64,000 nt of DNA from an uncultured Acidobacteriota bacterium (GCA_963773045.1 CAVYZT010000009.1:257857-321856), one strand, 5' to 3'. Shown: positions 8,893-54,576, counted from the first letter of the stretch. The notes: generated by a model from the sequence alone, not told the origin. Numbers and translations: made by a program.

Positions 8893-10266
8893 TCAAAGTC
8901 CCACCTCTACAGTGGTGCCGTAGGAAGGAATCTCCACCGGCCATTTGAGCTCCGAGGTGATGCGGGTCTTCAGCGCTTCCTGCGCTGGCGGTTCTCCGTG
9001 CACGAGGTACGTCATTTTGGCGGGCTTGGGAAACGTCCGCAGCCATCGGATGATCTCGCCGGCATCGGCATGAGCGGACATGCTGTTGAGCTTGTCGATT
9101 TTGGCGCGAACCAATACCTGCTGACCGTACATCTTCACGTAGTGAGCGCCGTCGATCAGTTGCCGGCCGCGCGTCCCGGCCGCCTGGAATCCCACGAACA
9201 ACACGGTGTGGCGAGCGTCGGAAAGGTTGGCAAACAGATGGTGAACGACGCGACCGCCGGTGGCCATACCGCTCGAGGCGATGATGATCGCCGGCTGATC
9301 GTTTTCGACCAGCGCCTTTGACTCCGCGGCCGAGGCAACCGGCCGGAATCGCGGGGCGGCGCGACGCATGGTGGCGACCTCGGGGTCGAGCTCGGCGTCA
9401 TGGTGACGATAGAACTGCAGCGCGCTCAGCGCCATCGGGCTGTCCACGTAGATCGGCAGCGTGGGAATCTGCCTGGCGTCTTCCAGCTTGAAGAGCCAAT
9501 AGAGAAGCTCTTCGACCCGTCCGATGGCAAACGCCGGGATGATCAGCTTGCCGCCGCGCGCATAGGATTCGCTCACCACCTCGGCGAGCCTCGCGCCATC
9601 GTCTTCGTTCGGATGCAGACGATCGCCGTAGGTCGACTCGACCAGGAGCACATCGGCCTCGACACCCGGCGAGGGATCGGGAAGAACGGGCCGGCTGTAC
9701 CGGCCAAGGTCTCCGCCGAACAGGATGCGCCCGCTCGTGCTGTTGCCGCGGCTGACGAGGACATATGCCGACCCAAGCAGATGACCCGCGTTGATGAACT
9801 GCGCCTCGATCCCTGGAGCGATCGGAAGCGGATGCCGGAAGGGATGCGTCACGAAACGAGACAGGGCTTCTGCCGCATCCTCCTTGGTGTAAAGCGGCAA
9901 GGCTGGATCGTGCTTGGAGTAGCCCCTCTTGTTGGCGAACTTCGCGTCCTCTTCCTGGAGGTGTGCCGCGTCAGGCAGGACGAGCTTGCAGAGATCGGCG
10001 GTGGCCGCGGTGCAATGAACCTTGCCTTTGAACCCGCCTCTCACCAGCCGCGGCAGCCACCCGCTGTGATCGATGTGCGCGTGAGTGAGGACTACGGTCT
10101 CGATCGAGTCCGCCGGAACGGGGAGCGGCAGCCAGTTGCGCTGGCGAAGCTCCTTCAGCCCCTGAAACATCCCGCAGTCGAACAGGATGCGATGGCCATC
10201 GACTTCCAAAAGATGTTTGGATCCGGTCACGGTGCGCGCGGCACCCAGAAACGTCAGCGACGCCAT
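8893..10266 (-). CDS. MBL-fold / beta-CASP RNA-metabolising hydrolase
   Basis: 457 aa. N-terminal LTFLGAARTVTGSKHLLE, the MBL motif LTHAHIDHSG, ESTYG, and a C-terminal SAHAD motif typical of beta-CASP nucleases. Confidence 0.85.
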   Translation of the reverse strand: MASLTFLGAARTVTGSKHLLEVDGHRILFDCGMFQGLKELRQRNWLPLPVPADSIETVVLTHAHIDHSGWLPRLVRGGFKGKVHCTAATADLCKLVLPDAAHLQEEDAKFANKRGYSKHDPALPLYTKEDAAEALSRFVTHPFRHPLPIAPGIEAQFINAGHLLGSAYVLVSRGNSTSGRILFGGDLGRYSRPVLPDPSPGVEADVLLVESTYGDRLHPNEDDGARLAEVVSESYARGGKLIIPAFAIGRVEELLYWLFKLEDARQIPTLPIYVDSPMALSALQFYRHHDAELDPEVATMRRAAPRFRPVASAAESKALVENDQPAIIIASSGMATGGRVVHHLFANLSDARHTVLFVGFQAAGTRGRQLIDGAHYVKMYGQQVLVRAKIDKLNSMSAHADAGEIIRWLRTFPKPAKMTYLVHGEPPAQEALKTRITSELKWPVEIPSYGTTVEVGL

Positions 10267-25124: not shown

Positions 25125-28100
25125 ATGGGCTTCTTTACTCGATCGTTGCGGAAGGGCGTCTTCGTCGTTCTGGCGTTGGGGGTTTCCGCGTCTGCCTGGG
25201 CACAGGCTGGCACGGGCTCGCTGGTAGGTGAGGTTACCGACCAGCAGAAGCAGGTCATCCCGGGCGCGACGGCGACGCTCACCAGCCGGCAGACCGGCGT
25301 CGCACAAGGGACTGTCTCTGACGAGCGCGGGACATATCGATTCGTCAACATCCAGCCGGGCCGCTACGACCTGAAGGTCGAGCTTTCGGGATTCAAGACC
25401 TCCGTCACCACGAACATCCCGCTGGTGGTGGACTCGACCGTGCGACAGAACGTGACGCTGGAGCTGGGCGGGGTCACCGAAACCGTCAATGTCGTGTCGC
25501 AGACAATCGTGCTCAACACCACCGATGCCAGCGTGGGGAACACCATCTCGACCGAGCAGATTCGCAGTCTGCCGATTGAAGCACAGAACGTCGTTCAGCT
25601 CCTCAGCCTGCAGCCGGGCGCGGTCTTCATCCCGACCAACGCCGAACTCCGACGCCGAGGACCCGCGCTACGGCGCCGTCGCTGGCGCGCGCGCCGACCA
25701 GCAGAACGTGACGCTCGATGGCATCGACGTGAACGATCCGCAGAACCAGACGGCGTTTACGTCGGCGGTGCGAATCACGCAGGAGGCGCTGCAGGAATTC
25801 CGCGTCAGCACATCCAATTACAACGCCGACAGCGGCCGTTCGAGCGGTGCGCAGGTGTCGCTGGTGACCAAGAGCGGGACGAATCAGTACAACGGATCTG
25901 GGTACTGGACCCTCCGCCGAACCCAGACGTCCAGCAACGAGTACTTCTTGAAGCTGGCCCAGTTGCTGGGGGGAAAGGAGAACCAGGCGCCGAAGCTCGA
26001 CAAGGACATCTACGGTGGCGCCTTCTCCGGACCGGTTCAGCGAAACCGGCTGTTCTTCTTCGGCAACATCGAGCGGCTCCAGGAACAGAGCGAAAGCCCG
26101 GTCGTGCGCGGCGTGCCTTCGAACTCGTTCCGCGACGGCGTGCTCATGTATCAGTGCGCGTCGGCGGCCGTGTGTCCCGGCGGCAGCGTTCGCGGCTTGA
26201 GCAACACTCACACCGTGCCGAGCGGTTGGTATGGGATGACACCGGCCGACATCGCGGCCATCGATCCCCTGCGGATCGGTCCGAGCCTCGCGGCAGCCAG
26301 GTACTTCAGCCAGTACCCGTCGCCGAACGAGCCGGGCCAGCGTCCGAACAACATCGACTCGTTCCGATTCGCGTCGCCGATCGAGAATCAGTTCTACACC
26401 TTCCTCACGCGCGTGGACTACAACTTGTCGTCGACCGGCGACCACAAGTTGTTCGGCCGGTTCGGCAAGCAAGACGACACGATCAACGAGGCGGCGCAGT
26501 TCCCCGGTCAACCCGCACGGCGCCAGGCGCTCCGCGCCAACTTCGGGCTGGCGCTGGGTTACGACACGGTGCTGACCTCGCACCTCACCAACAGCTTCCG
26601 TTACGGCATGACGCGGATCGACGAATCCAATGAAGGACGCACGGACGCCAATTACGTGACGTTCCGCTTCATCGACCCGTTTGACGCCCTCGGCTCGACC
26701 TTCACCGATTCGCGCCAGCCCAATACGCACAATTTCGTGGACGACGTCAATTGGTTCAAGGGCACGCACGGGTTCAAGGCCGGAACCAACATCCGCTACA
26801 GCCGAGTACCCAAGGAACGCTTCCAAAGTTCCTACCTGAACGCAACAGGTCAATCCCTCATGGGTGGCCGGCGTCGGCCGGCGCAACATGCCGGGCAGCG
26901 CGTTCTGCACGGTGGCCCGCTGTTCAGAGCTTCCGGCAGTGGCGAGCGCGGGCCAGGCCGGTTACGCGGACGCCTGGCTCAACATCATTGGCGTGCTGTC
27001 GCAGTCGACCCAGCGCGCCAACTACGATCGCGACGGCACGCCGCAGGCGCCGGGAACTCCGGTCGCTCGCACGGTCGCCTCGGACGAGTACGAGGTCTAC
27101 CTGCAGGATAGCTGGCAGGTGCGACCGAACCTCACGATCACTGGCGGCGTGCGTTACAGCCTGTATTCGCCGCCGTATGAGGCCAACGGGCTGCAGGTCG
27201 CCCCATCGATCAGCATGGGCGAGTGGTTCGACCAGCGGGTCGCCAACATGGCAAAGGGCATCCCGTCGAACCAGTCCCCAATCGTCACGTTCGATCTCGC
27301 GGGCCCCAAGAACGACCGCCCCGGATTCTACGGGTGGGACAAGAACAACATCGCGCCGCGCATCTCGGCGGCCTGGACGCCGACCGCGGAAAAGGGATTC
27401 CTGCACAAGCTCACCGGCAACGGGGCGTTGACCGTTCGCGGCGGGTACACGAAGGTCTTCGACCGTGTCGGTCTGGGCCTGGCCACGAATTTCGACGAAG
27501 GCTTCGCGTTCGGGATGTCGACGCAGATCAGCAGCCCGTTCGGCGCGCCGTATGAAGAGAATCCCGCGGTCCGGTTCATCGATACCAAGACGCTGCCGCC
27601 GACCGTGCCGGCCGCACCGCCGGGAGGGTTCCCTCAGACACCGCCACGTCGAGCCGGAATCATCACGCAGAGCATCGACGACACGTATGACGACGCCGTC
27701 GGCCCACATGCTCAGCGCCGTCGTCGGCCGCGATCTCGGGCGGAACTATCAGATGGAAGTGGGATACCTCGGTCGATTCGGCCGGGATCTCCTGATTCGT
27801 CGCGACATCGCGATGCCGCTGAACCTCGTCGACGCGAAGAGCGGCATGGACTATTTCACGGCGGCGCAGCAGATCATCGGCGCCGCCCAGGCACGCGGCA
27901 TCACCGGCAATTCGGCGGCCTCGGCCTACGGCGTGCTGCCGGCGCTCGCGTATTGGGAGAATCTGTTCCCGGGTGCGGCCGGCAACGGGCTGACGGCCAC
28001 ACAGGCGATCACGCGCGCCTACATGCAGAACGGTCCGGACTGGATCACGGCGCTCTACGACATGGACACGTCGTGCAGCCCGTCATGCAGCATCTTCGGT

Positions 28101-28968
28101 CCCTACTCGCTACTTCGCTGAGCAGTACGACTCACTGGCCGCAATCAGCTCCATCGGCCGCTCGAACTATAACGCGATGCTGTTCACGTTGAGAAAGCGA
28201 TACTCCGGCGGCACCCAGTTCGACTTCAACTACACGTTGTCGAAATCCATGGACATGGGCTCCCAGGTGGAGCGCGGAAGCGCCTTCGGCAACTTCTCGA
28301 ACGGCGGCAACTCCGGCTTCCTGATCAACTCCTTCGAGCCCGATCTCAATTACGGGATCTCGGACTTCGATCTGCGTCATCAAATCAACATCAACGGTCT
28401 CGCCGAGCTGCCGTTCGGCGCCGGCAAGCGCTGGGGCAGCAACGCCCACGGTCTGGTGAACGGCCTGATCGGCAACTGGTCGGTGGCCGGCCTCATGCGT
28501 TGGACCAGCGGCTTCCCGTTCAACGTCGCCAACTGCCGTTCGTGCTGGGCGACGAACTGGAACCTGACCGGCAACGCGATGCTGGTCGATCCCAACAAGC
28601 TCCCGCCCACCGAGACGACGATGAACACGGTGGACAATCGGCCGAGCCCATTCGTCGACGCGACCGAAGCGCTCACGTACTTCCGGCGCGCGCTGCCGGG
28701 CGAGGCCGGCATCCGCAACCTGCTGCGCGGCGACGGGTATTTCACGATCGACACCAGCCTCAGCAAGTCGTGGGGAGTGGGCATTTCCGACCATCGAATC
28801 CGATTCCGATGGGATGTCTTCAACCTGACGAACACACCCAAGTTCGATGTCGGGCAGTTGTCGGTCACGCCGGATATCGCCGGCTTTGGCAAATACACCG
28901 GCACGCTGGCCACCTGCGACGCGCAGGCCGGCCGCTGCATGCAGTTCGCGTTTCGATACGAGTTCTGA
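25125..28968 (+). pseudogene. CarboxypepD_reg / TonB-dependent-receptor-like giant outer-membrane protein, broken by at least 4 frameshifts
   Basis: One continuous homologous reading is recovered only by joining five track ORFs across frame changes near 25640, 26848, 27685 and 28110. The ORFs are 25125.., 25489.., 26864.., 27465.. and ..28968. The N-terminus has a signal peptide plus GSLVGEVTD..GATATL..RGTYRFVNIQPGRYDL. The C-terminus ends FAFRYEF, a typical terminal aromatic. Confidence 0.8.
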
Positions 28969-45837: not shown

Positions 45838-47530
45838 CTAGCGCAATCGCGCGAGGCTGATGGCGCGGGCGACCGAGCCAACCAGCTCGTCGAGATCGAT
45901 CGGCTTGGCGAGGTGCCAGTCGTAGCCAGCCTCGATCGCCGCGGCGCGCTCGGGGAGGCTGGCGTAGGCGGTCACGGCAACCGCAGGAACCCGGCCACCT
46001 AAGTCGGCGGGCAGCGTTCTCACCGCCTGGATCAAGGCGTATCCATCCTTGCCGGGCATGGCGATGTCGCAGAAGAGCACATCGAACGATCGATGGCGAA
46101 GCGCGCGCAGCGCCTCCTCGGCCGACCCGGCGGTGACGACGTCTGCGCCTCGTGATTCGAGCATCGCGCGCATCAGATCCCGCGCGTCGGCCTGGTCGTC
46201 GATGACCAGGACGCGGGCAGCCGACAGCTGCATAGGTTGGCTGTCCTGAGCCGGCGAATCCGTTTTGGCCTTCGGCCGCACCGACTTGATCGGCAACTGC
46301 ACGGTGAACGTCGCGCCGTGACCATCACCGAGACTCGCGGCCAGGACGTTGCCGCCATGCGCCTCGGTGACATGCCTGACGATCGCAAGCCCGAGGCCGA
46401 GCCCGCCGTGACTTCGCGCGCTGGTGCTGTCGGCCTGGCGGAACCGCTGGAACATGAGTGGCAAGAAATCCGGGCGAATGCCCTGTCCCGTGTCTTTCAC
46501 GACGATTTCCGCGGTGGATTCACGCGCCCGCAACTCGACTTCGACTTGGCCATCGGCCGGGGTGAATTTGATCGCGTTCGAGAGGAGATTCCAGATGACC
46601 TGCTCCAGGCGCTCGGCATCGCCCTGAACGAGGATGTCGATATCGGACGGCGTCTTGACCACCAGGCGAATGCGTTTGGATTTCGCCGTCAACAGATGCG
46701 TTTCGACCGCGCTGGTGATCACCGACCCCAGATCGACCGCATCCTGCTTGAGCTGGAACTTGTCCGACACGATGCGCGAGATGTCGAGCAGGTCCTCGAC
46801 GAGCTGCGCCTGCGCCTTGGCATTGCGGCGGATGACGTCGATGGCTCGCTGCTGGGCGTCGAGCGACAGGGTTCGCTCGCCCAGCAGGTGGGTCCATCCG
46901 AGGATGGCATGCAACGGCGTTCTCAGCTCGTGCGAGAGCGTGGCGAGGAATTCATCCTTTACGCGGTTCGATTCTTTGAGCAGTTCGTGCGCCGCGGCCA
47001 GCTCGGCCTGATGCTTCTGAGAGGAGAGGTCGGTGAGCAACACGCCGACGCCGCTCGAGTCCTCGAGCGCGCTGAGGGTCAGGTAGACGGGAACGCACGG
47101 TGCCGTCTGCGGCCTGCATGAGAATTTCGCCCTGGCTGGCCGATGCCTGCCCCTCGAGCACGAGGGTGAGGTATTCCGCATGCTGATTGAGCGAGACGAA
47201 ATCGACCAGCGGCGTGCCGATGAGCTTCTCGAGCGAGACGCGCAGCATGGTGGCGAGCTGGCGATTGGCGTAGACAATCGTCCCGTCGGGGCCGAGCATG
47301 GCGGCGCCTTGATGCATCCGTTCGATCAAGACGCGGTACGGACGCTCGGCCCCTTCGAGCGTGTAGATTCGATTGCCGTTCTCGCCGTTGACGACAAACG
47401 CGTCCACCGCGCCCGAACGAATCGCCTCGAGCGTCTCTTGCGCCTCTTCCAGCCGCCGCCGAAGATCCGCGTTCTCGCCTTCGAGATCGTCGGCGGACAT
47501 GCGGGCTCCTGCCGCGGTCCTCCTGGTCAT
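45838..47530 (-). CDS. PAS - HisKA - HATPase - REC hybrid sensor kinase (one apparent frameshift near 47094)
   Basis: The N-terminal coiled-coil plus PAS is in one frame (..RIYTLEGAERPYRVLIERMHQGAAMLGPDGTIVYAN..EILMQAADGT). It continues in another frame (PCVPVYLTLSAL..FLATLSHELRTPL..GGLGLGLAIV..VLVIDDQADARD..DIAMPGKDG). The ATG overlaps the kaiB TGA (ATGA). Confidence 0.8.
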
Positions 47531-47886
47531 CGACCGGCCTCGCCTCGCGGGCGCAGATCCAGGCCGACCAGGACGCGTTCGACGTCGGACAAGTTGCCGA
47601 TCAGGCGGCGCAACGGGAGCGGGAGTTTCTTGACCAAGGTCGGCGCGGCAACGATCTCCTCGTCTCGCGCCGCTTCCGGATGCTGATAGATATCGATGAC
47701 CTCCAGCTCGTAGCGTCCTTGGAGGTACTTCGCGCAGAGCGATTTGAGCGTCTGGATCGCTTCCGACGAACGGGCTGTCATGCCGGTGACGAACAGCCGC
47801 AAGACATAGCGCTCACTGTTGGTCGCGGCAGAAGCCAAGGCCTCTTCAAATTCTTCCGTGCTTGATTTGCCAGGCTTCTTCATCAC
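47527..47886 (-). CDS. kaiB: KaiB-family protein (copy 2)
   Basis: [85 protein letters not shown] is the canonical KaiB pattern. Confidence 0.85.
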
Positions 47887-48218
47887 ACTTCGATCCTCGC
47901 GGGCCGGAGCTGCAACCCGACCAGCACGCGCTCGGTGTCGCGGAGGTCACCCACGATCTTGCGCAGCGGTTCGGGCAGCTTCCGGACCAGCGTAGGAATC
48001 GCGATGATCTGATCGCCCGCGGCCAACTGCGGGTTCACTAAGAGATCGACGATCTCGATCTCGTAGCGGCCGGCCAGATGCTCTTCGCAAAGCCGCTTGA
48101 TGTTGGCGAAGGCGGCAATCGACTTCGGCGTCTGGCCGGCAACATAGAGGCGAAGCTGCCACACCTCACCATTCCCGAGGTCGTCTGGTATCGGGTCTTC
48201 TCGAAGGGCTTCGTTCAT
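47883..48218 (-). CDS. kaiB: KaiB-family protein (copy 1)
   Basis: [89 protein letters not shown] overlaps on both sides. Confidence 0.85.
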
Positions 48219-49972
48219 TTGCGCCCCCTCCGTCCTGTGGTCGTTGCCTGGCCGTCGATTGGCGGGGGGTCCGCGTGGCGGCTGTGAATCATCTGCGACT
48301 GCTCGTCCTGACGCGCCACTTCGCGATCGCGTTCCTGAAGTTCTGAGATTTCCGAGGCTTGTTCCTCTGCTTCGAATTCCCGGCGCAGCGCCGCGATTCG
48401 CGCCTCGTGCGCTTCTCGCCTCCGCCGGCGCTCGCGCTGCACGGCCTCGGCCGCATGTTGCTGCGCGACCCCCGCCGCCTTCTCGCGCGCTTCTTGCACT
48501 ACCCGCGCCGACCCGGTGAGCGCGCCCTCCGGTCCGAGATACACGTCTCGCAGCTCGATGCCCCGGTCGGTCAACAGGAACTCGCGCAATTGATTCGAGT
48601 GCGCCATGCCGCGTGACTTGAGGATGGAAATCTGGCGGTTGCGCTCGCCGGAGGACTCGACGGTCCGCAGCAAGATCCAGGTATCGACGAGCGACGAGAT
48701 GCCAACCTCGGTGGCTTCGAGGACCTGGTTGCCCGACGTCAGATCGGTCAGCAGGACCGTAATCTGGCGCACCTTTAGAAAATCGATCAGGCGGATCAGC
48801 ATGATGCCGGCCTCCCGAGTGGTGCCGGCGTGCAGCAGGCTGCTGATCGGATCGAAGATGACCGCGCGCGTCTCAAAGTCCTGAATACGCCTGAGCACTC
48901 TCGCCAAGTGGGCTTCCAGGCCGTACAGGTTCGGTCGCGTGCTGTGAATCTCGAGGAGTCCCTGGTTCGTCCACCGCTCGAGGTCGAGCCCGATCGAGCG
49001 CATGTTGCGCACGATTTGTCCAGGCGACTCTTCGAGGGCCAGATACAAACAGCGCTCGCCTCGCGCGCACGACGCGTCCGCGAAATGCGCGGCCACGCTG
49101 GTCTTGCCGCTGCCTGCGGTTCCAGAGATCAGGACCGTAGTGCCCCGGTAGTACCCTCCGTCTCCCAGCATCGTGTCGAGACGGGGGACGCCACTGGGGA
49201 CCCGTTCATCGCTGGCGATGTGCGCCAGGCCAAGCGAGGTGATGGGCAGGACGTTGAACCCGGTTTCGTCGATGAGAAACGGGTACTCGTTGGTGCCATG
49301 CGTCGTCCCCCGATACTTCACGATGCGCAGCCGGCGCGTGGAGAGCTGATCGGTCACGCGATGGTCGAGGACGATGACGCAATCCGAGATGTACTCCTCG
49401 AGGCCGTGCCTCGTCAGCAGACCCTCCCCGCGTTCGCCGGTGATCACGGCCGTTACCTGCCGGTCCTTGAGCCAGCGGAACAGTCGACGCAGTTCGGCCC
49501 TCAGGATGGATTCATTGGAGAGACCGGAAAACAACGTCTCGAGAGTGTCGAGCACGACCCGCTTGGCGCCAATCGTGTCGATGGCATGCCCCAGGCGGAC
49601 AAAGAGGCCTTCGAGATCGTACTCACCGGTCTCGTCGATCTCGCTCCGCTCGACCCGGACAAAGTCCACGACCAGCAGCTTGCGATCGATCAAACCGTCG
49701 AGGTCGAACCCCAACGAGCGGACGTTCTGCGTCAGTTCCCGGGCGGACTCTTCGAAGGTCAGCAAGACGCCCGGCTCGCCGTATTCGGTGGCGCCGCGGA
49801 CCAGGAACTCCATCCCCATGAGCGTTTTACCGCACCCGGCGCTGCCACATACCAGCGTCGAGCGGCCGCGGGGAAAACCGCCGAACGTAATCTCATCCAG
49901 CCCGCGTATGCCCGTAGGAGTTTTGGGCAGCTGAGGCTCAGAGTAGGTAGATGGGGGACCGGCCTTGGGCAT
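48215..49972 (-). CDS. kaiC: KaiC-family double-domain ATPase with an extended charged C-terminal tail
   Basis: ATG 49972. [17 protein letters not shown]. Two Walker A motifs (GSAGCGKT and GTAGSGKT). [11 protein letters not shown] lies at the position of the cyanobacterial phosphosite segment. The last ~90 aa are Arg/Glu/Ala-rich ([47 protein letters not shown]). Confidence 0.9.
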
Positions 49973-50118
49973 CTTAGGGTTCTTTCTGTGAGGCAACCTC
50001 AGAAACCGCCTTTCGATGAGTAGTCGGGAAAGTGAAGAAAGCAACAAGCAAGCCATAGTGAAATGCAGGCGGAGTTCTTGGTTCGAAGCGGGATGGGTAG
50101 ATAATTGGAGCCTCCCAA

Positions 50119-50409
50119 ATGGCTGAACACGAGTTGAGCGCCAGCTTCGCTGCGTCTGACGATGTCGTCTCCCGCCGCCTCGACGACATCGTGGTTCTCA
50201 TCCACCTGAAAACCAACCGGATCTTCGAGCTCAACGCGACCGGCGCGCGTCTCTGGGAATTGATCAGCGCTGGAACGGATACCGGCGAGATCCGCGAGAT
50301 CATGCTGAACGAGTTCGACGTGGCGCCAGCTGAGCTGGCCAACGCCATCGCGTCGTTGACCAGGCTGCTCGCCTCAGAGGAACTGATTGCCAAGCGCGAC
50401 GCCGGTTAG
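50119..50409 (+). CDS. PqqD-family RiPP recognition element (lasso B1)
   Basis: 96 aa with ggag 9 nt upstream. ..VVLIHLKTNRIFELNATGARLWELISAGTDTGEIREIMLNEFDV.PAEL..AIASLTRLL is the PqqD/RRE pattern. Confidence 0.8.
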   Translation: MAEHELSASFAASDDVVSRRLDDIVVLIHLKTNRIFELNATGARLWELISAGTDTGEIREIMLNEFDVAPAELANAIASLTRLLASEELIAKRDAG

Positions 50410-52265
50410 CCGCCCTGCGGCCGAGCTCACGTGCCAATGGGTGGCGCGCGTGCCTCTGCGTTCTTCCGGGTCTTCAAGCGGATTCAGCATCACGGGCGAG
50501 CGGGGACGGTTTCTCAGCTCGGTTCAGCGGCACTCGTCGGCCGCGATGTTCAGCGGTCATCTCCACAATCGTCCGGCCCTGATCGCGACACTTGGAGGAC
50601 CCGGAGAGTCGCTCGACGATGCCGAGTTGATGCTGCGCGCGTACGAACGCTGGGGGCAGGACTGTCCTCGCCAGATCCGCGGCATCTTCGCTACCGTGAT
50701 CTGGGACGCGGACCACGCCACGGTGTTTGCGGCCCGCGATCGGATTGGCGTCCATCCGCTGTTCTGGGCGAGTACAGGATCCGATCTTCTGTTCTCGTCG
50801 TCGATCCTCTCGCTGGCTTCTGATCCCCGGGTCTCGCGAGCACCGAATCGCTCCGCGATGGTGGATCACATCAGACACACCTGGGGCGACCACCCGACCG
50901 AGACATTCTTCCAGGCCATCCGTCGCGTCCCTGCCGGTCACGCCTTTGCTGGCTCCTACGGCCAGCTGCGCGAATGGCCCTACTGGCACGTCCTGAAGCC
51001 TGATCGAGAGATCGATTGGATGGCAGACGAGGAGGCCGATCGCTTCGACACGATGCTCGACGAGGCCGTCGAGCGCTGCCTGGAGTTGGGACCGAGCGCG
51101 ATCTTTCTGAGCGGCGGGCTGGATTCGGTGAGCGTCGCCGCCGCGGCGATCGACCTGTCGCGGCGATCGGGACGGCGCGCGCCGCTCGCGTTGTCGTTGG
51201 CGTTTCCACACCCTGAGTGCAATGAAGAAGACGTCCAGCGCGGCGTGGCGTCTGGTCTGGGCATTCCACAACTCATCTATCCGTTCGAGGAAACGGTTCA
51301 ACCCCACGGCTTGATGGAGTCGGCCCTTGCCTTGACGCGGAAGATGGGCGCACCGCTGGAGAACCCTTGGGAGCCGGCGTACCACCGTCTCAGACACGAG
51401 GCGCGTCAGCGTGATTGCCAGGTGATCATGACGGGCAATGGCGGCGACGACTGGCTCACGGTGGATCCGTATTACGTCGCGGATCTTCTGCGCACGTGGA
51501 ATGCCGGTGATCTGATTGAACTGCTGCGCAACTCGTTGCGGTCGGTACGATCTGCCCCGCGTCGCCCACGTCCGCCGCTTGCTGTGGAACTACGGGCTCC
51601 GGCCGTTGCTGTCGCGGCGGTTGTCGCGACTGCTCACGCGAGTGGCGCCTTCGGTCCTGGCCACGCATCGGCGCCACCGGCAAGAGTCGGTGACGCCCGA
51701 TTGGCTCGCGCCGGATCCGGAACTGCGCCGCGAATCGGTTCGCCGATTTGCCGAGGTGGCCGAGCGCATACGGCGGCGGCCGGCGCCAACCGGTCCGTAC
51801 GGGTTCTTCTCGATGGAAGGCCCAACCGGATTCATCCGGCCGTCGATGGCCATGGAGTTCGAAGAGCAATTCGAGTTCAGCCGGATGACGCAGACCCTCG
51901 AGATGGCTCCGTATTGGGATGCGGACCTGGTCGAGTTCCTCCATCGCATCCCGCCAAGAATCCTGGACAAGGGCGGGCGCGCTAAAGGAATGGTTCGCGA
52001 GACGGTGGCCAGACGCTTCCCACGGCTGGGCTTCGACCGCCAACGCAAGGTGTCAGCGGCAAACTATTTCGTCTCGGTGCTCTCCACTGCAGGCGCGGCA
52101 GCTTGGCAACGCTCGGGCGGCGCCAAAGAGTTGGCGCGATTAGGAGTGGTTGGCCCAGGCGTGAGCGAGTTCGCTCGCCAGGCCTTCGAGTCTCGAGACA
52201 CGGCGCAAATGCCCCAGATCTTGGATATCATGCACTTGGAAGAATGGGTGCGGGCACATGTCTGA
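50387..52265 (+). CDS. asparagine-synthetase-like lasso cyclase (C protein), one apparent frameshift near 51544
   Basis: RIGVHPLFWA, AIFLSGGLDSVSVAAAA (PP-loop SGGxDS) and GNGGDDW are in frame 1. The reading continues as YDLPRVAHVRRLLWNYGLRP...PYWDADLVEFLHRIPP in the 51516..52265 ORF. The exact start is uncertain. Confidence 0.8.
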
Positions 52266-52291
52266 TCCCGAGGCCGGCCAGAGGAGGCCAG

Positions 52292-52468
52292 ATGCAAAGA
52301 GATTCGGAGCGGAAACATTCGACCGAGCGCACCGAGAAAAAACCGTGGGAGACTCCGAAGCTGTCGTACGTCGGCGCGGTCGAGGACGTGGTCCAGCAGG
52401 GCGACGGCAAGCTCACAGCGGTTGCGGCCGATCCTGGTGAGAGCAAGAAGACGAAGCCTTCAGGCTGA
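52292..52468 (+). CDS. lasso-peptide precursor (A peptide), 58 aa
   Basis: ATG 52292 is preceded by gaggagg. MQRDSERKHSTERTEKKPWETPKLSYVGAVEDVVQQGDGKLTAVAADPGESKKTKPSG. W-x-x-P-x-L-x3-G matches the conserved lasso leader motif YxxPxLxxxG. The gene sits between the cyclase and kinase genes. Confidence 0.7.
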   Translation: MQRDSERKHSTERTEKKPWETPKLSYVGAVEDVVQQGDGKLTAVAADPGESKKTKPSG

Positions 52469-52474
52469 GCACGT

Positions 52475-53422
52475 TTGACGCCTTTCGCGGCGTCACCGCC
52501 GCCTTCCATGCTTTCGCTCGCCATCCTCCAGGGAGAGGACCAGCATCCAACCCAACTGGATCCATCCGCGCCAGGCGTAAACATCTGGCGAAGCCCGGAC
52601 GGGCAGCCGGTGGCGTTCTCTTCCACCAACGGCGATCGGCGCTGCCTCGATTGGCCGGGCGTCGCGAGCTTTGAATTCTCCGCCGGCTCCGCTCACATCA
52701 CGGCCATCCCCTATCGGCCGGCCCGCCCCGACCTCATCACCGAAGCGTTTCATCACAGCGTCTTGCCGCTGGCACTGCAGTCGCTCGGCCGTGAGGCCAT
52801 ACACGCCAGCGGTGTCCTGACTTCGCAGGGCGTGGTCGGTTTCTGCGGCCACGCTGAAGTCGGCAAGTCCACCATGGCGTACGCGTTGAGCCAACGCGGA
52901 TATGCCGCATGGTCGGACGATGCAGTGGTGTTTGAGATCGTTCGGCAACAGCCGCGTTCGCTGCGCCTGCCCTTCGAGTTCAGGTTGAGGCCACCTTCCG
53001 CCGCGCATTTCGGAACTCCAGCGCGACTGCAGCCCGAGACTGTGGCAGACGTGAACCAGAGAGCGCCGATCGCCGCCTTGTGCGTCCTGGCTCGCCAGAC
53101 CCCAGAGTCGGAGACGGGTGTCTCGATTGCCAGACTCGAAGGGCGTGCCGCGCTCACGACGGTGCTGGGACACGCGCTCTGCTTCGACTGGCACGATGGT
53201 GCGCGCAAGCGGCAGTTGCTCGTCAATTATCTGGCCCTGGCGTCCTCGATTCGAGTCTTCGACGTGCGCGTGCAGCCTTCGCTCGCCCGCCTCTCACACG
53301 TGGTGGACGCCATCGTCGATCGCGTGGTCGCCCCGTTGGCGGCGCGCGGTTCGCTCTCGCACCAGGTCGCGGTAGTTGGGCCGGGACCGGAACCAGCCGG
53401 CATAGGCAGTCTTCGGCGCTGA
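52475..53422 (+). CDS. HPr-kinase-like serine kinase (lasso tailoring kinase candidate)
   Basis: IHASGVLTSQGVVGFCGHAEVGKSTMAYALSQRGYAAWSDDAVVFE parallels the HprK P-loop segment (..G.GVL..G.SG.GKS..AL.L..RG..LV.DD). TTG start in the track; an alternative ATG lies at 52508. Confidence 0.7.
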   Translation: MTPFAASPPPSMLSLAILQGEDQHPTQLDPSAPGVNIWRSPDGQPVAFSSTNGDRRCLDWPGVASFEFSAGSAHITAIPYRPARPDLITEAFHHSVLPLALQSLGREAIHASGVLTSQGVVGFCGHAEVGKSTMAYALSQRGYAAWSDDAVVFEIVRQQPRSLRLPFEFRLRPPSAAHFGTPARLQPETVADVNQRAPIAALCVLARQTPESETGVSIARLEGRAALTTVLGHALCFDWHDGARKRQLLVNYLALASSIRVFDVRVQPSLARLSHVVDAIVDRVVAPLAARGSLSHQVAVVGPGPEPAGIGSLRR

Positions 53423-53998
53423 GCCGACGACGTCGGTCACGCGGTGTCGCAGACCGGGATCGATGCGAAACATCAGGGCGTCGCCGATGCCGAGATTTGC
53501 GATCTCACAGAACACGTGATCGGAATCGGCCTGACGCATTTGCAGCAACCCGCCGCTGTAGGGTGTCGCGCTCAAGTTGATGCTCAACGCGATCATTCGA
53601 TCGCCACCGACATCCGAGTGCCACGAGTCGTAGTGGCCTTGCCCGGGCACCATCCGATACACCCGGCCGACAAACGATCCGATTGGTCCGCAGCCGGTGA
53701 GGGTGCGAACGATCGCGAAAAACTCCGGATCGTTGGCCAGCAGTTCGAGGACTCCGGTTGCCAGTCCGTGCCGCGCGCAAAGCTCCGACCCGATGCCTTC
53801 GTGTTCGTAATCGGAGAAGCTGGTCTGCTCGAACGCCGTCAACACCGCGGTGACAAGCTCGGGCGCCAGCAGGCTGGGCAGCAGGATGCAGTGTCCCTGC
53901 TCGAATCGCTGGCGCGCCTGAGTCAGGGCTGAGGCATCCGGAACGGCGACGCCCCGGTGGCGAAGCTGAACGATCATGCGGGCCTTCTCTGGAATCAT
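53294..53998 (-). CDS. 2OG-Fe(II) oxygenase-superfamily protein
   Basis: 234 aa. WHSDVGGD (HxD) plus the distal LRHRV His within a beta-rich core. It lies downstream of the B2 gene on the same strand. Confidence 0.6.
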   Translation of the reverse strand: MIPEKARMIVQLRHRGVAVPDASALTQARQRFEQGHCILLPSLLAPELVTAVLTAFEQTSFSDYEHEGIGSELCARHGLATGVLELLANDPEFFAIVRTLTGCGPIGSFVGRVYRMVPGQGHYDSWHSDVGGDRMIALSINLSATPYSGGLLQMRQADSDHVFCEIANLGIGDALMFRIDPGLRHRVTDVVGSAPKTAYAGWFRSRPNYRDLVRERTARRQRGDHAIDDGVHHV

Positions 53999-54132
53999 TT
54001 ACGCATTTGACGCCCTTGGATCAGGAGTCCCGGTGACGGGCACCGGCCGCGCGCCAGTGGTGACAGGCCTGATCGGGGCGCTCGAGACATTCGACACGTG
54101 GGGTTGACGCGAGCATTCCCGGCGACACAACG

Positions 54133-54576
54133 CTATTGGGCGATGGCGCGATCGAATGCCGCGAAGCGTTCACGGACATCGTCGTCGTCGTTGAGCACGA
54201 TGCCGCCGTGTTCCACCCACGCGTGCGCCTCGATCTCCGTGCTGGCCTTGCGCACGCCGAATCGGAGCACCGCGTTAATGCCCTGGCGCCGCAACAACCA
54301 CCAGAGAACGACCGAATGCGGCAGGCAGCTGACGCGAAACAACCCTCGTTCCGCTGCCAGCCGCACCAATCGGGTCGTCGCGTGCACTCGTTCGAGTGGG
54401 GAGGACGCGCCGTCCGACGGACGCGGCAGCGTGGTCGAGATCAACGACTGGAGGCGCGCAAAACTGAGCAAGCGAAGCGCGCCGGCCGTGAGCGGCAGCA
54501 GAGCCAGCGCCTGAAGAAATATCCATCTGTCGCGCGGTGACAGTTGGTCGAATGCGCGCCAGCGGTTGAGCCGCAC
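54133..54576 (-). CDS. lasso peptide biosynthesis B2 protein (transglutaminase-like leader peptidase)
   Basis: 147 aa. C..H..D arrangement: RVSCLPHSVVLWWLLRRQGI..LRFGV..EAHAWVEHGGIVLNDD. Confidence 0.85.
   Translation of the reverse strand: MRLNRWRAFDQLSPRDRWIFLQALALLPLTAGALRLLSFARLQSLISTTLPRPSDGASSPLERVHATTRLVRLAAERGLFRVSCLPHSVVLWWLLRRQGINAVLRFGVRKASTEIEAHAWVEHGGIVLNDDDDVRERFAAFDRAIAQ

Follow-up and report, generated by a model that had tools for sequence, protein, structure and literature searches.

A lasso-peptide gene cluster pairing an HprK-fold kinase with an Fe(II)/2OG oxygenase: a probable minimal member of an apparently uncharacterised family

To our knowledge, phosphorylation and Fe(II)/2-oxoglutarate (2OG)-dependent hydroxylation of lasso peptides have each been characterised in a few examples, which lie in separate clusters and mostly concern the C-terminal residue. 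We describe here a lasso-peptide locus that encodes both kinds of enzyme, located at 50119-54576 of a 64,000-nt stretch of DNA (the window, by which we mean the whole stretch) whose nearest relatives make an acidobacterial origin plausible. Among described systems, Bradymonas sediminis has the kinase BsfK, for which the phosphorylated core residue is Ser3 and the B1 protein acts as a stimulator (Duan et al. 2023); the mature Bsf lasso peptide was never obtained (PMC10368454). Kinases of the paeninodin type (PadeK, ThcoK and SyanK; Zhu et al. 2016, via PMC8498205 and PMC9266682) act on a C-terminal Ser, which is this type's determinant and is called "extremely conserved" (PMC9266682). Pseudomycoidin is made with the kinase PsmK, whose site is again the C-terminal Ser, and the nucleotidyltransferase PsmN (Zyubko et al. 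2019, PMC6993621). CanE, from the canucin A cluster of Streptomyces canus (Zhang & Seyedsayamdost 2020), is described in a review as an oxygenase that works on the precursor while it is linear, beta-hydroxylating its C-terminal Asp, with stimulation by CanB1 (PMC9266682).

By analogy, the cluster in the window would work like a hybrid of these, joining BsfK-type core-proximal phosphorylation to CanE-type Fe/2OG hydroxylation assisted by a RiPP recognition element (RRE; RiPP, peptide made by the ribosome and modified after translation). The locus is a genuine six-gene split-B lasso-peptide cluster (Table 1). The arrangement proposed by the first-pass annotation, with B1, the cyclase gene C, the 58-aa precursor A and the kinase on the + strand and the oxygenase and B2 convergently on the - strand, was borne out gene by gene by the list of open reading frames (ORFs), Pfam and NCBIfam, and with it the presence of an HprK-like kinase and an Fe/2OG oxygenase in one split-B cluster. 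We consider it fairly probable that the window holds a minimal version of a lasso family that is widespread and apparently uncharacterised, built on the module B2, 2OG oxygenase, B1, C, A and kinase.

The distribution of the genes supports this reading. Scans with kinase alignments recovered 15 genome loci and 80 soil-metagenome loci, the latter with a 6-sequence alignment (a 36-sequence one was too divergent). All 15 genome loci come from metagenome-assembled genomes (MAGs) of Acidobacteriota/Vicinamibacteria and Gaiellales/Solirubrobacterales, and the recorded sources of family members in other searches were likewise metagenomes or MAGs only. In an exhaustive phmmer search (E <= 1e-30) the kinase family comprised 387 clusters at 50% identity. 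We then compared gene content over 25 non-duplicate loci, including the window, that extend at least 5 kb upstream and at least 4 kb downstream of the kinase; they come from MAGs of Acidobacteriota and Actinomycetota and from soil metagenomes. B2 was present in all 25, at least one oxygenase in 21, NTP_transf_5 in 20 and an ABC exporter in 13; the six genes of the window are exactly the conserved core of the family. A large subgroup arranges them as one colinear B2-Oxy-B1-C-A-K operon, and the closest relatives of the window have its convergent layout, in which B1-C-A-K faces Oxy-B2. The earlier idea that double tailoring was peculiar to this genome had to be abandoned, given the frequency of the oxygenase and the size of the kinase family. 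Its companion claim, that the combination is probably uncharacterised, still stands: the searchable literature, which is incomplete, yielded no paper on a lasso family with a kinase and a 2OG oxygenase, and searches for lasso peptides of Vicinamibacteria likewise returned nothing relevant.

The kinase needed more than sequence models. HprK models matched it weakly (E 5e-4), and motif, hhalign and structure tests were therefore added; a PDB profile search with the 6-sequence kinase alignment matched no HprK chain. Aligned against BsfK by hhalign, the kinase family scored a probability of 95.4% (E 1.8e-8, 176 columns), and blastp gave E 2e-7 across the catalytic region. The AlphaFold2 (AF2) model of the kinase had a mean predicted local distance difference test (pLDDT) score of 88.6, and its best Foldseek matches were the HPr kinase/phosphatase structures 3tqf, 1kkl and 1ko7, followed by PEPCK. 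The catalytic motif of lasso precursor kinases has been defined (PMC10368454, PMC9266682) and in BsfK consists of H148, G163, G166, G168, K169, S170, D186 and D187 (PMC10368454). At the same spacing the window kinase has H110, G125, E128, G130, K131, S132, D148 and D149, the only replaced position being that of G166, which is dispensable in BsfK. Its P-loop reads G-x4-GKS(T), and it has the motif His110...Lys131...Asp148-Asp149. Over 36 homologues, H110, G130, K131, T133 and D149 never vary, while at least 90% keep D148. The whole catalytic domain aligns with BsfK in the same H...G-x4-GKS...DD spacing. The two are homologous and of one superfamily; because the identity is low (only ~25-36%, limited to the catalytic region), they are not necessarily orthologues.

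Two observations concern homologues of this kinase. The model PF27840 'ScmC' was precomputed on some of them (P0135, P0136, P0150 and others; L107 7849-8712). We take ScmC to be the SynChlorMet cassette protein of TIGRFAMs, and on that basis these kinases would be tied to a further cassette for peptide modification; a literature search for 'ScmC' gave nothing relevant. In L078, L099 and L104, more distant kinase homologues, of 33-38% identity, adjoin precursors with the same style of leader and unrelated, Cys- or Arg-rich cores, e.g. YEKMTVSLVG...CDSDLSTNFQSKTDDQGDGNNEFC.

Upstream of the kinases we gathered 64 distinct precursors, of which 63 share a single anchoring pattern. Its leader part reads W-x-x-[P/M]-x-L-x-x-x-G ... 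V-[V/L]-Q, followed by 3-5 variable Gly-rich residues, and its core part [G/A]1 K2 x3 [S/T]4 x5-8 [D/E]9 [P]10 G11 [E/D]12 x [R/K] K15 [P]. Five core positions are filled in all 63: G/A1 (Gly in 61, Ala in 2), K2, S/T4, G11 and E/D12. Position 9 is Asp in 61, Glu in one and Asn in one, so that 62 of the 63 have an acidic residue there; P10 is found in 54 and K15 in 59. The spacing from G1 to position 9 is constant in 63 of the 64 distinct precursors, and variation in length is confined to the stretch before G1 and to the tail. Family models gave the precursor no match, even at E <= 10 in NCBIfam. In the window, the leader carries W-E-T-P-K-L and a Gly-rich junction that ends in QQGD. Its W-x-x-P-x-L motif lies at -20/-17/-15 instead of the canonical -17/-14/-12, and the distance from W to the core is 20 residues in 52 precursors, 21 in 10 and 22 in one.

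We infer the leader/core boundary, the ring and both modification sites from this conservation. A core start at Gly39 is the only choice that leaves an acceptor, Asp9, within positions 7-9, and we predict the core GKLTAVAADPGESKKTKPSG with a Gly1-Asp9 ring because only a Gly/Ala start places an acidic residue at 7-9. Under this preferred boundary the Thr(-2) rule fails, since 62 of the 63 precursors carry Gly there. Departures from Thr(-2) are on record, with Ile or Val in its place (PMC10368454). Other boundaries were tried. Canonical leader spacing, with the core starting one residue after V-x-Q, would give the window Val at -2, yet it leaves 7-9 without an acidic residue and makes position 1 variable across the family (Q/G/E/V/T/S/A/I). 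For cleavage of the double-glycine/C39 type, which was rejected, the Pfam hits recorded on the relatives' ABC transporters include no peptidase domain. The Ile/Val(-2) precursors of Acidobacteriaceae (Granulicella type, ...YQADE; PMC10368454) form a separate family.

One further boundary deserves weighing, in which the core would be TAVAADPGE... with a Thr1-Glu9 ring and the kinase and oxygenase would act elsewhere (Ser13, Thr16, Ser19, Lys or Asp). The spacing from Ser/Thr4 to Glu/Asp12 is as invariant as that from G1 to D9, one precursor has Asn at the other acceptor candidate, and lasso cores that begin with Ser are well established. On the other hand, the residue before Lys is Gly (61) or Ala (2), the classic position 1, and is preceded by the only length-variable stretch outside the tail; a core beginning with Thr would be unprecedented, as would Lys/Leu at -2/-1; and Ser13, Thr16 and Ser19 are unconserved across the family. 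The interchange of Ser and Thr at position 4 fits a kinase target and indicates that the hydroxyl seems to matter. We regard this boundary as unlikely and retain the start at Gly39.

With the Gly39 start, Ser/Thr4 is the sole invariant hydroxyl residue of the core, and when the search pattern was freed of this requirement, 9 more loci came up that retain it as well. The first-pass annotation had instead invoked paeninodin-type phosphorylation of a C-terminal Ser. The window core ends in ...KPSG, and not one of 44 distinct cores has Ser as its last residue, which excludes the paeninodin mechanism because that residue is its determinant (PMC9266682, PMC8498205). A variant, in which a kinase like those of paeninodin, ThcoA and SyanA phosphorylates the C-terminal region at the penultimate Ser19, could appeal to the same HprK-like superfamily and His-Lys-Asp-Asp motif (PMC9266682), and to the presence of that Ser; we think it very unlikely, as the final residue is Gly and Ser or Thr is absent from the last three residues of most of the 44 cores.

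Set beside BsfK and its precursor BsfA, the window shares the split-B cluster, the HprK-like kinase, which in the Bsf case acts on the linear precursor (PMC10368454), and a residue other than Thr at -2. The cores are unrelated, and the two systems differ in that residue (Ile in Bsf, Gly in the window), in the ring (G1-D8 in the Bsf core GTSGNEVD, predicted G1-D9 in GKLT....D) and in the invariant hydroxyl, which is at position 3 in the Bsf type and at position 4 in the window family. The leader motif lies 3 residues farther from the core in the window, and for the bsf cluster an ABC exporter is listed along with a nucleotidyltransferase but no oxygenase, the window being the opposite on all three. 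The paeninodin type resembles the window in the HprK-homologous kinase, the His-Lys-Asp-Asp motif and the split B, and, if our order of steps is right, in modification before leader removal (PMC8498205, PMC9266682); the window family departs from it in having neither a C-terminal Ser (Gly here) nor Thr(-2), and the window adds an oxygenase and lacks an exporter.

The oxygenase has the Fe/2OG triad H127-x-D129...H185, invariant in 43 homologues. Its AF2 model (pLDDT 91) is closest in the PDB to Tpa1/OGFOD1, the Pseudomonas prolyl 4-hydroxylase (P4H) and PHD2, which are protein prolyl hydroxylases. Each homologue with a readable genomic context sits in a lasso cluster. Four relatives (P0072, P0078, P0108 and P0118) are N-terminal PqqD::oxygenase fusions, one of them adjoining B2-K-A-C; these fusions argue for leader-guided hydroxylation of a lasso precursor and are strong evidence that the oxygenase would act on it. 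That the enzyme might be an unrelated neighbour, leaving the peptide alone, could be suspected from its position on the strand opposite to A and from the breadth of PF13640. We find this scarcely credible, since the gene adjoins B2 both in the closest relatives and in the colinear operons, in two phyla, and is present in 21/25 loci, in addition to the fusions.

As its target, Pro10 of the conserved D-P-G-E motif is plausible and the leading candidate, because the presence of Pro10 correlates with that of the oxygenase and because the fold is P4H-like. Pro10 is found in 21 of 22 dereplicated oxygenase-positive cores, and Ser or Lys stands at position 10 in two of the three well-covered oxygenase-negative cores (Fisher p ~0.03, for a small and phylogenetically non-independent sample). 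Compared by description with CanE, the window likewise has an Fe/2OG oxygenase in a lasso cluster, and stimulation by B1 parallels the PqqD::oxygenase fusions. The target of CanE is a C-terminal Asp, whereas the window core ends in Gly; the fold of the window oxygenase is nearest to protein prolyl hydroxylases; and the review describes no kinase for the can cluster (PMC9266682).

The remaining genes are those of a split-B pathway. The 3' end of B1 overlaps the start of the cyclase gene by 23 nt, as it does in L002, a relative with an intact cyclase; the B1 protein is 59-66% identical to PqqD of L001 and L002 and scores above the gathering threshold of PF05402, while the lasso PqqD models of NCBIfam match at E 1e-8, under their cutoffs. 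B2 reaches 87.1 bits (cutoff 33) with NF033537 'lasso peptide biosynthesis B2 protein' and E 5e-25 with PF13471, and its sequence shows Cys...His-Ala-Trp-Val-Glu motifs. For the kinase and the oxygenase, homologues and independent gene calls indicate likely starts inside the ORFs of Table 1, at ATG 52508 (304 aa) and at ATG 53977 (227 aa, with AGAAGG upstream). The two genes are convergent and their 3' ends overlap by 129 nt (53294-53422), compared with 129 nt in L023, 80 nt in L001 and 77 nt in L002; in the overlap, kinase residues 295-315 are non-conserved and of low pLDDT, and the oxygenase residues include invariant positions.

Table 1 Features of the lasso-peptide cluster, in coordinates of the window
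Feature	Coordinates	Strand	Basis
B1, PqqD-like leader-recognition protein (RRE), 96 aa	50119..50409	+	PF05402, E 5e-14
C, Asn-synthetase-like lasso cyclase, ~625 aa if repaired	50387..52265	+	GATase_7, Asn_synthase, NF033535
Frameshift site in cyclase, one extra G	51544..51545	+	DNA alignment with L023
Shine-Dalgarno-like AGAGGAGG before precursor ATG	52279..52286	+	direct reading of the sequence
Precursor A, 58 aa	52292-52468	+	homologues upstream of kinase in relatives
Predicted leader of A, 38 aa	52292..52405	+	family alignment; predicted cleavage site
Predicted core of A, GKLTAVAADPGESKKTKPSG, 20 aa plus stop	52406..52468	+	position conservation in 63 precursors
Core Thr4, candidate phosphosite	52415-52417	+	
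Core Pro10, candidate hydroxylation site	52433-52435	+	
K, HprK-fold kinase, 315-aa ORF from TTG 52475	52475..53422	+	hhalign, fold search
Fe(II)/2OG oxygenase (2OG-FeII_Oxy_3)	53294..53998	-	PF13640, E 4e-7
B2, transglutaminase-like leader peptidase, 147 aa	54133..54576	-	NF033537, PF13471

The cyclase gene is the one that is broken in the sequence as given. It consists of two overlapping ORFs in different frames, 50387-51985 and 51516-52265; NF033535 'lasso peptide isopeptide bond-forming cyclase' matches at E 2.8e-46 with 158 bits, under its full-length cutoff of 525, and the SGGLDS PP-loop is present. In tblastn, residues 7-388 of the intact 641-aa cyclase of L002 aligned up to nt 51556, and the following frame takes over at nt 51561 with residues 390-625; identity is 56-57% on either flank, with no further stops or indels; at the junction ...NSLRS/YDLPR... 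not a single residue is lost relative to L002. The window reads GGTCGGTACGAT where L023 reads GGTC-CTACGAT, which leaves a single surplus G at 51544/51545, and L023 (78% nt identity) stays in one frame across the site. Close sequences did not reach it: L024-L026, at 96% nt identity, end before the frameshift site, as do two Logan contigs whose precursor is identical. The window contains at least 4 other frame breaks in conserved, unrelated genes. Together with the intact frame of L023, these make it likely that the cyclase frameshift is a sequencing or assembly error. Split cyclases also occur in several relatives from long-read MAGs. The frameshift recorded by the first-pass annotation is real in the given sequence, and most probably an artefact in biological terms; the cluster is on that account probably functional in the organism.

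Elsewhere in the window, a gene for a CarboxypepD_reg protein with an OMP beta-barrel (TonB-receptor-like), at 25125-28968 on the + strand, is spread over at least 4 frames, the profile segments 1-320, 363-516 and 610-830 falling in separate ORFs, which points to a pseudogene or to low quality of the sequence in this region. In the hybrid histidine kinase gene upstream of the cluster, the PAS domain is broken by a frame change in the 46952-47277 overlap of its two ORFs.

Several observations weigh against our reading as a whole. No product of any member of the family has been observed, which is why the boundary, the ring and the modification sites are given above as predictions. Gly(-2) differs from the Thr, or Ile/Val, used by all characterised B2 proteases, and neither an aromatic residue nor Arg is present in the tail to plug a ring of 9 residues, so that a stable threaded lasso is not assured and threading may depend on the modifications or be unstable. 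At the predicted ring acceptor, the precursor of L015 (~9721-9861, Vicinamibacteria) has Asn (...SPANPGE...). The oxygenase fold is also near amino-acid hydroxylases and halogenases (HalB, BesD), and Pro is therefore not the sole candidate target; L062 has an oxygenase yet Ser at position 10. At the level of the locus, the exporter, nucleotidyltransferase and second oxygenase of most relatives are missing, L024-L026 have a gene with an FGE-sulfatase domain upstream of the oxygenase where the window has B2, the surplus base lies outside any long homopolymer, and the assembly alone cannot show it to be an error.

The last three points would suit a decaying remnant, in which the frameshift is genuine, accessory genes (exporter, nucleotidyltransferase, second oxygenase, PqqD) have disappeared and the strain makes no mature peptide. 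The frameshift is, after all, in the sequence as given, the window is alone among the 25 well-covered loci in lacking both an exporter and NTP_transf_5, and the lack of B2 upstream of the oxygenase in the 96% identical L024-L026 means that the locus has been rearranged. We nevertheless judge decay improbable: both halves of the cyclase have kept the same identity to the intact orthologue with no more stops or indels, the other five genes are intact with their catalytic residues conserved, frame breaks in unrelated conserved genes point to a general problem of sequence quality, and many relatives without an exporter within 10 kb have intact operons. As for the similarity of L024 (1-1329), L025 and L026, it covers 52459-54031 of the window and breaks at ~54031, which indicates a recent rearrangement at the edge of the cluster and is compatible with a locus in flux.

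The missing genes were searched for over the entire 64 kb. The relatives' ABC exporter, their nucleotidyltransferase and second oxygenase, and further accessory proteins of theirs gave no tblastn match (E <= 1e-4), in agreement with the earlier statement that a transporter gene is lacking. The absence of an isopeptidase from the cluster also held: no isopeptidase-like gene was noticed among the scanned neighbours, where an S8 subtilase was the sole peptidase seen. Less was left of the exporter as a distinctive trait, its lack being common to about half of the relatives; what sets the window apart is that NTP_transf_5 is lacking as well. The pairing of the kinase with NTP_transf_5 in 20/25 loci recalls pseudomycoidin, and many relatives may therefore add a group onto the phosphate. 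From pseudomycoidin the window differs in having no nucleotidyltransferase and in its predicted phosphosite, and for the pseudomycoidin cluster no oxygenase is described in the reviews consulted; the idea that modifications help to hold the thread (PMC6993621) may apply to the plug-poor tail of the window peptide.

In our favoured account of the pathway, B1 would bind the 58-aa precursor through the W-x-x-P-x-L leader motif, and the kinase would phosphorylate the linear peptide, most likely at the invariant Ser/Thr4 (Thr4 here) and not at a C-terminal Ser. The prolyl-hydroxylase-like oxygenase, guided by the leader, would hydroxylate the linear core, Pro10 being the best guess. B2 would then cleave after the Gly-rich junction, behind Gly-Asp, without Thr(-2), and the cyclase would bond the side chain of Asp9 to the amine of Gly1. 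Of the 20 residues expected in the product, 9 would form the ring and 11 a Lys-rich tail; the predicted monoisotopic masses are 1923.04 Da for the macrolactam, 2003.01 with phosphate and 2019.00 with phosphate and one oxygen. As there is no exporter nearby, the product would stay intracellular or leave via a transporter encoded elsewhere. Before any attempt at expression, one G has to be taken out of the cyclase gene. We would go further only tentatively: it is possible, though doubtful, that this is a new lasso subclass, cut between Gly-Gly and Gly without Thr/Ile/Val(-2) and carrying phospho-Ser/Thr4 in the ring and hydroxyproline beside the isopeptide Asp. If so, modifications and not bulky side chains would hold or tune the thread of a strongly hydrophilic, Lys-rich peptide.

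The surroundings of the cluster add context. Upstream, at 45838-50056 on the - strand, lie kaiC, two kaiB genes and the hybrid histidine kinase/response regulator; downstream are genes for a BNR-repeat protein, a patatin and the S8 subtilase. A scan of the cluster for promoters and terminators gave nothing informative. Three genes keep synteny with the cluster in Acidobacteriota relatives (12834-16252 in L002; also in L001, L004, L006, L011-L015 and L018) and code for a possible phosphatase, NT5C/HAD-like and of 262 aa, for a protein with HEAT repeats and for a 438-aa protein of unknown function; the window has none of the three. The Vicinamibacteria loci (L004, L006, L011-L015 and L018) have a second PqqD and two adjacent oxygenases, and add a methyltransferase, an FAD-dependent oxidoreductase and a Wzy_C-like protein, some also a GT2 glycosyltransferase, which suggests far heavier tailoring there than in the window.

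The combination of kinase and oxygenase is genuine and apparently uncharacterised, yet it stays within the logic of lasso RiPPs, and the copy in the window is a stripped-down and possibly mis-assembled one. Both tailoring genes belong to the conserved core of a large family of uncultured soil Acidobacteriota and Gaiellales/Solirubrobacterales, whose precursor departs from two textbook rules, Thr(-2) and the C-terminal Ser. On the tentative reading as a new subclass, the lack of an exporter in about half of the clusters, the window included, means that the product may act inside the cell and not as an antibiotic. A single characterised member would test how B2 recognises a Gly-rich junction and whether an HprK-type kinase targets the ring-forming part of a linear precursor, and would reveal how a P4H-like enzyme acts on a RiPP; the family could thereby add RRE-guided tailoring enzymes for peptide engineering.

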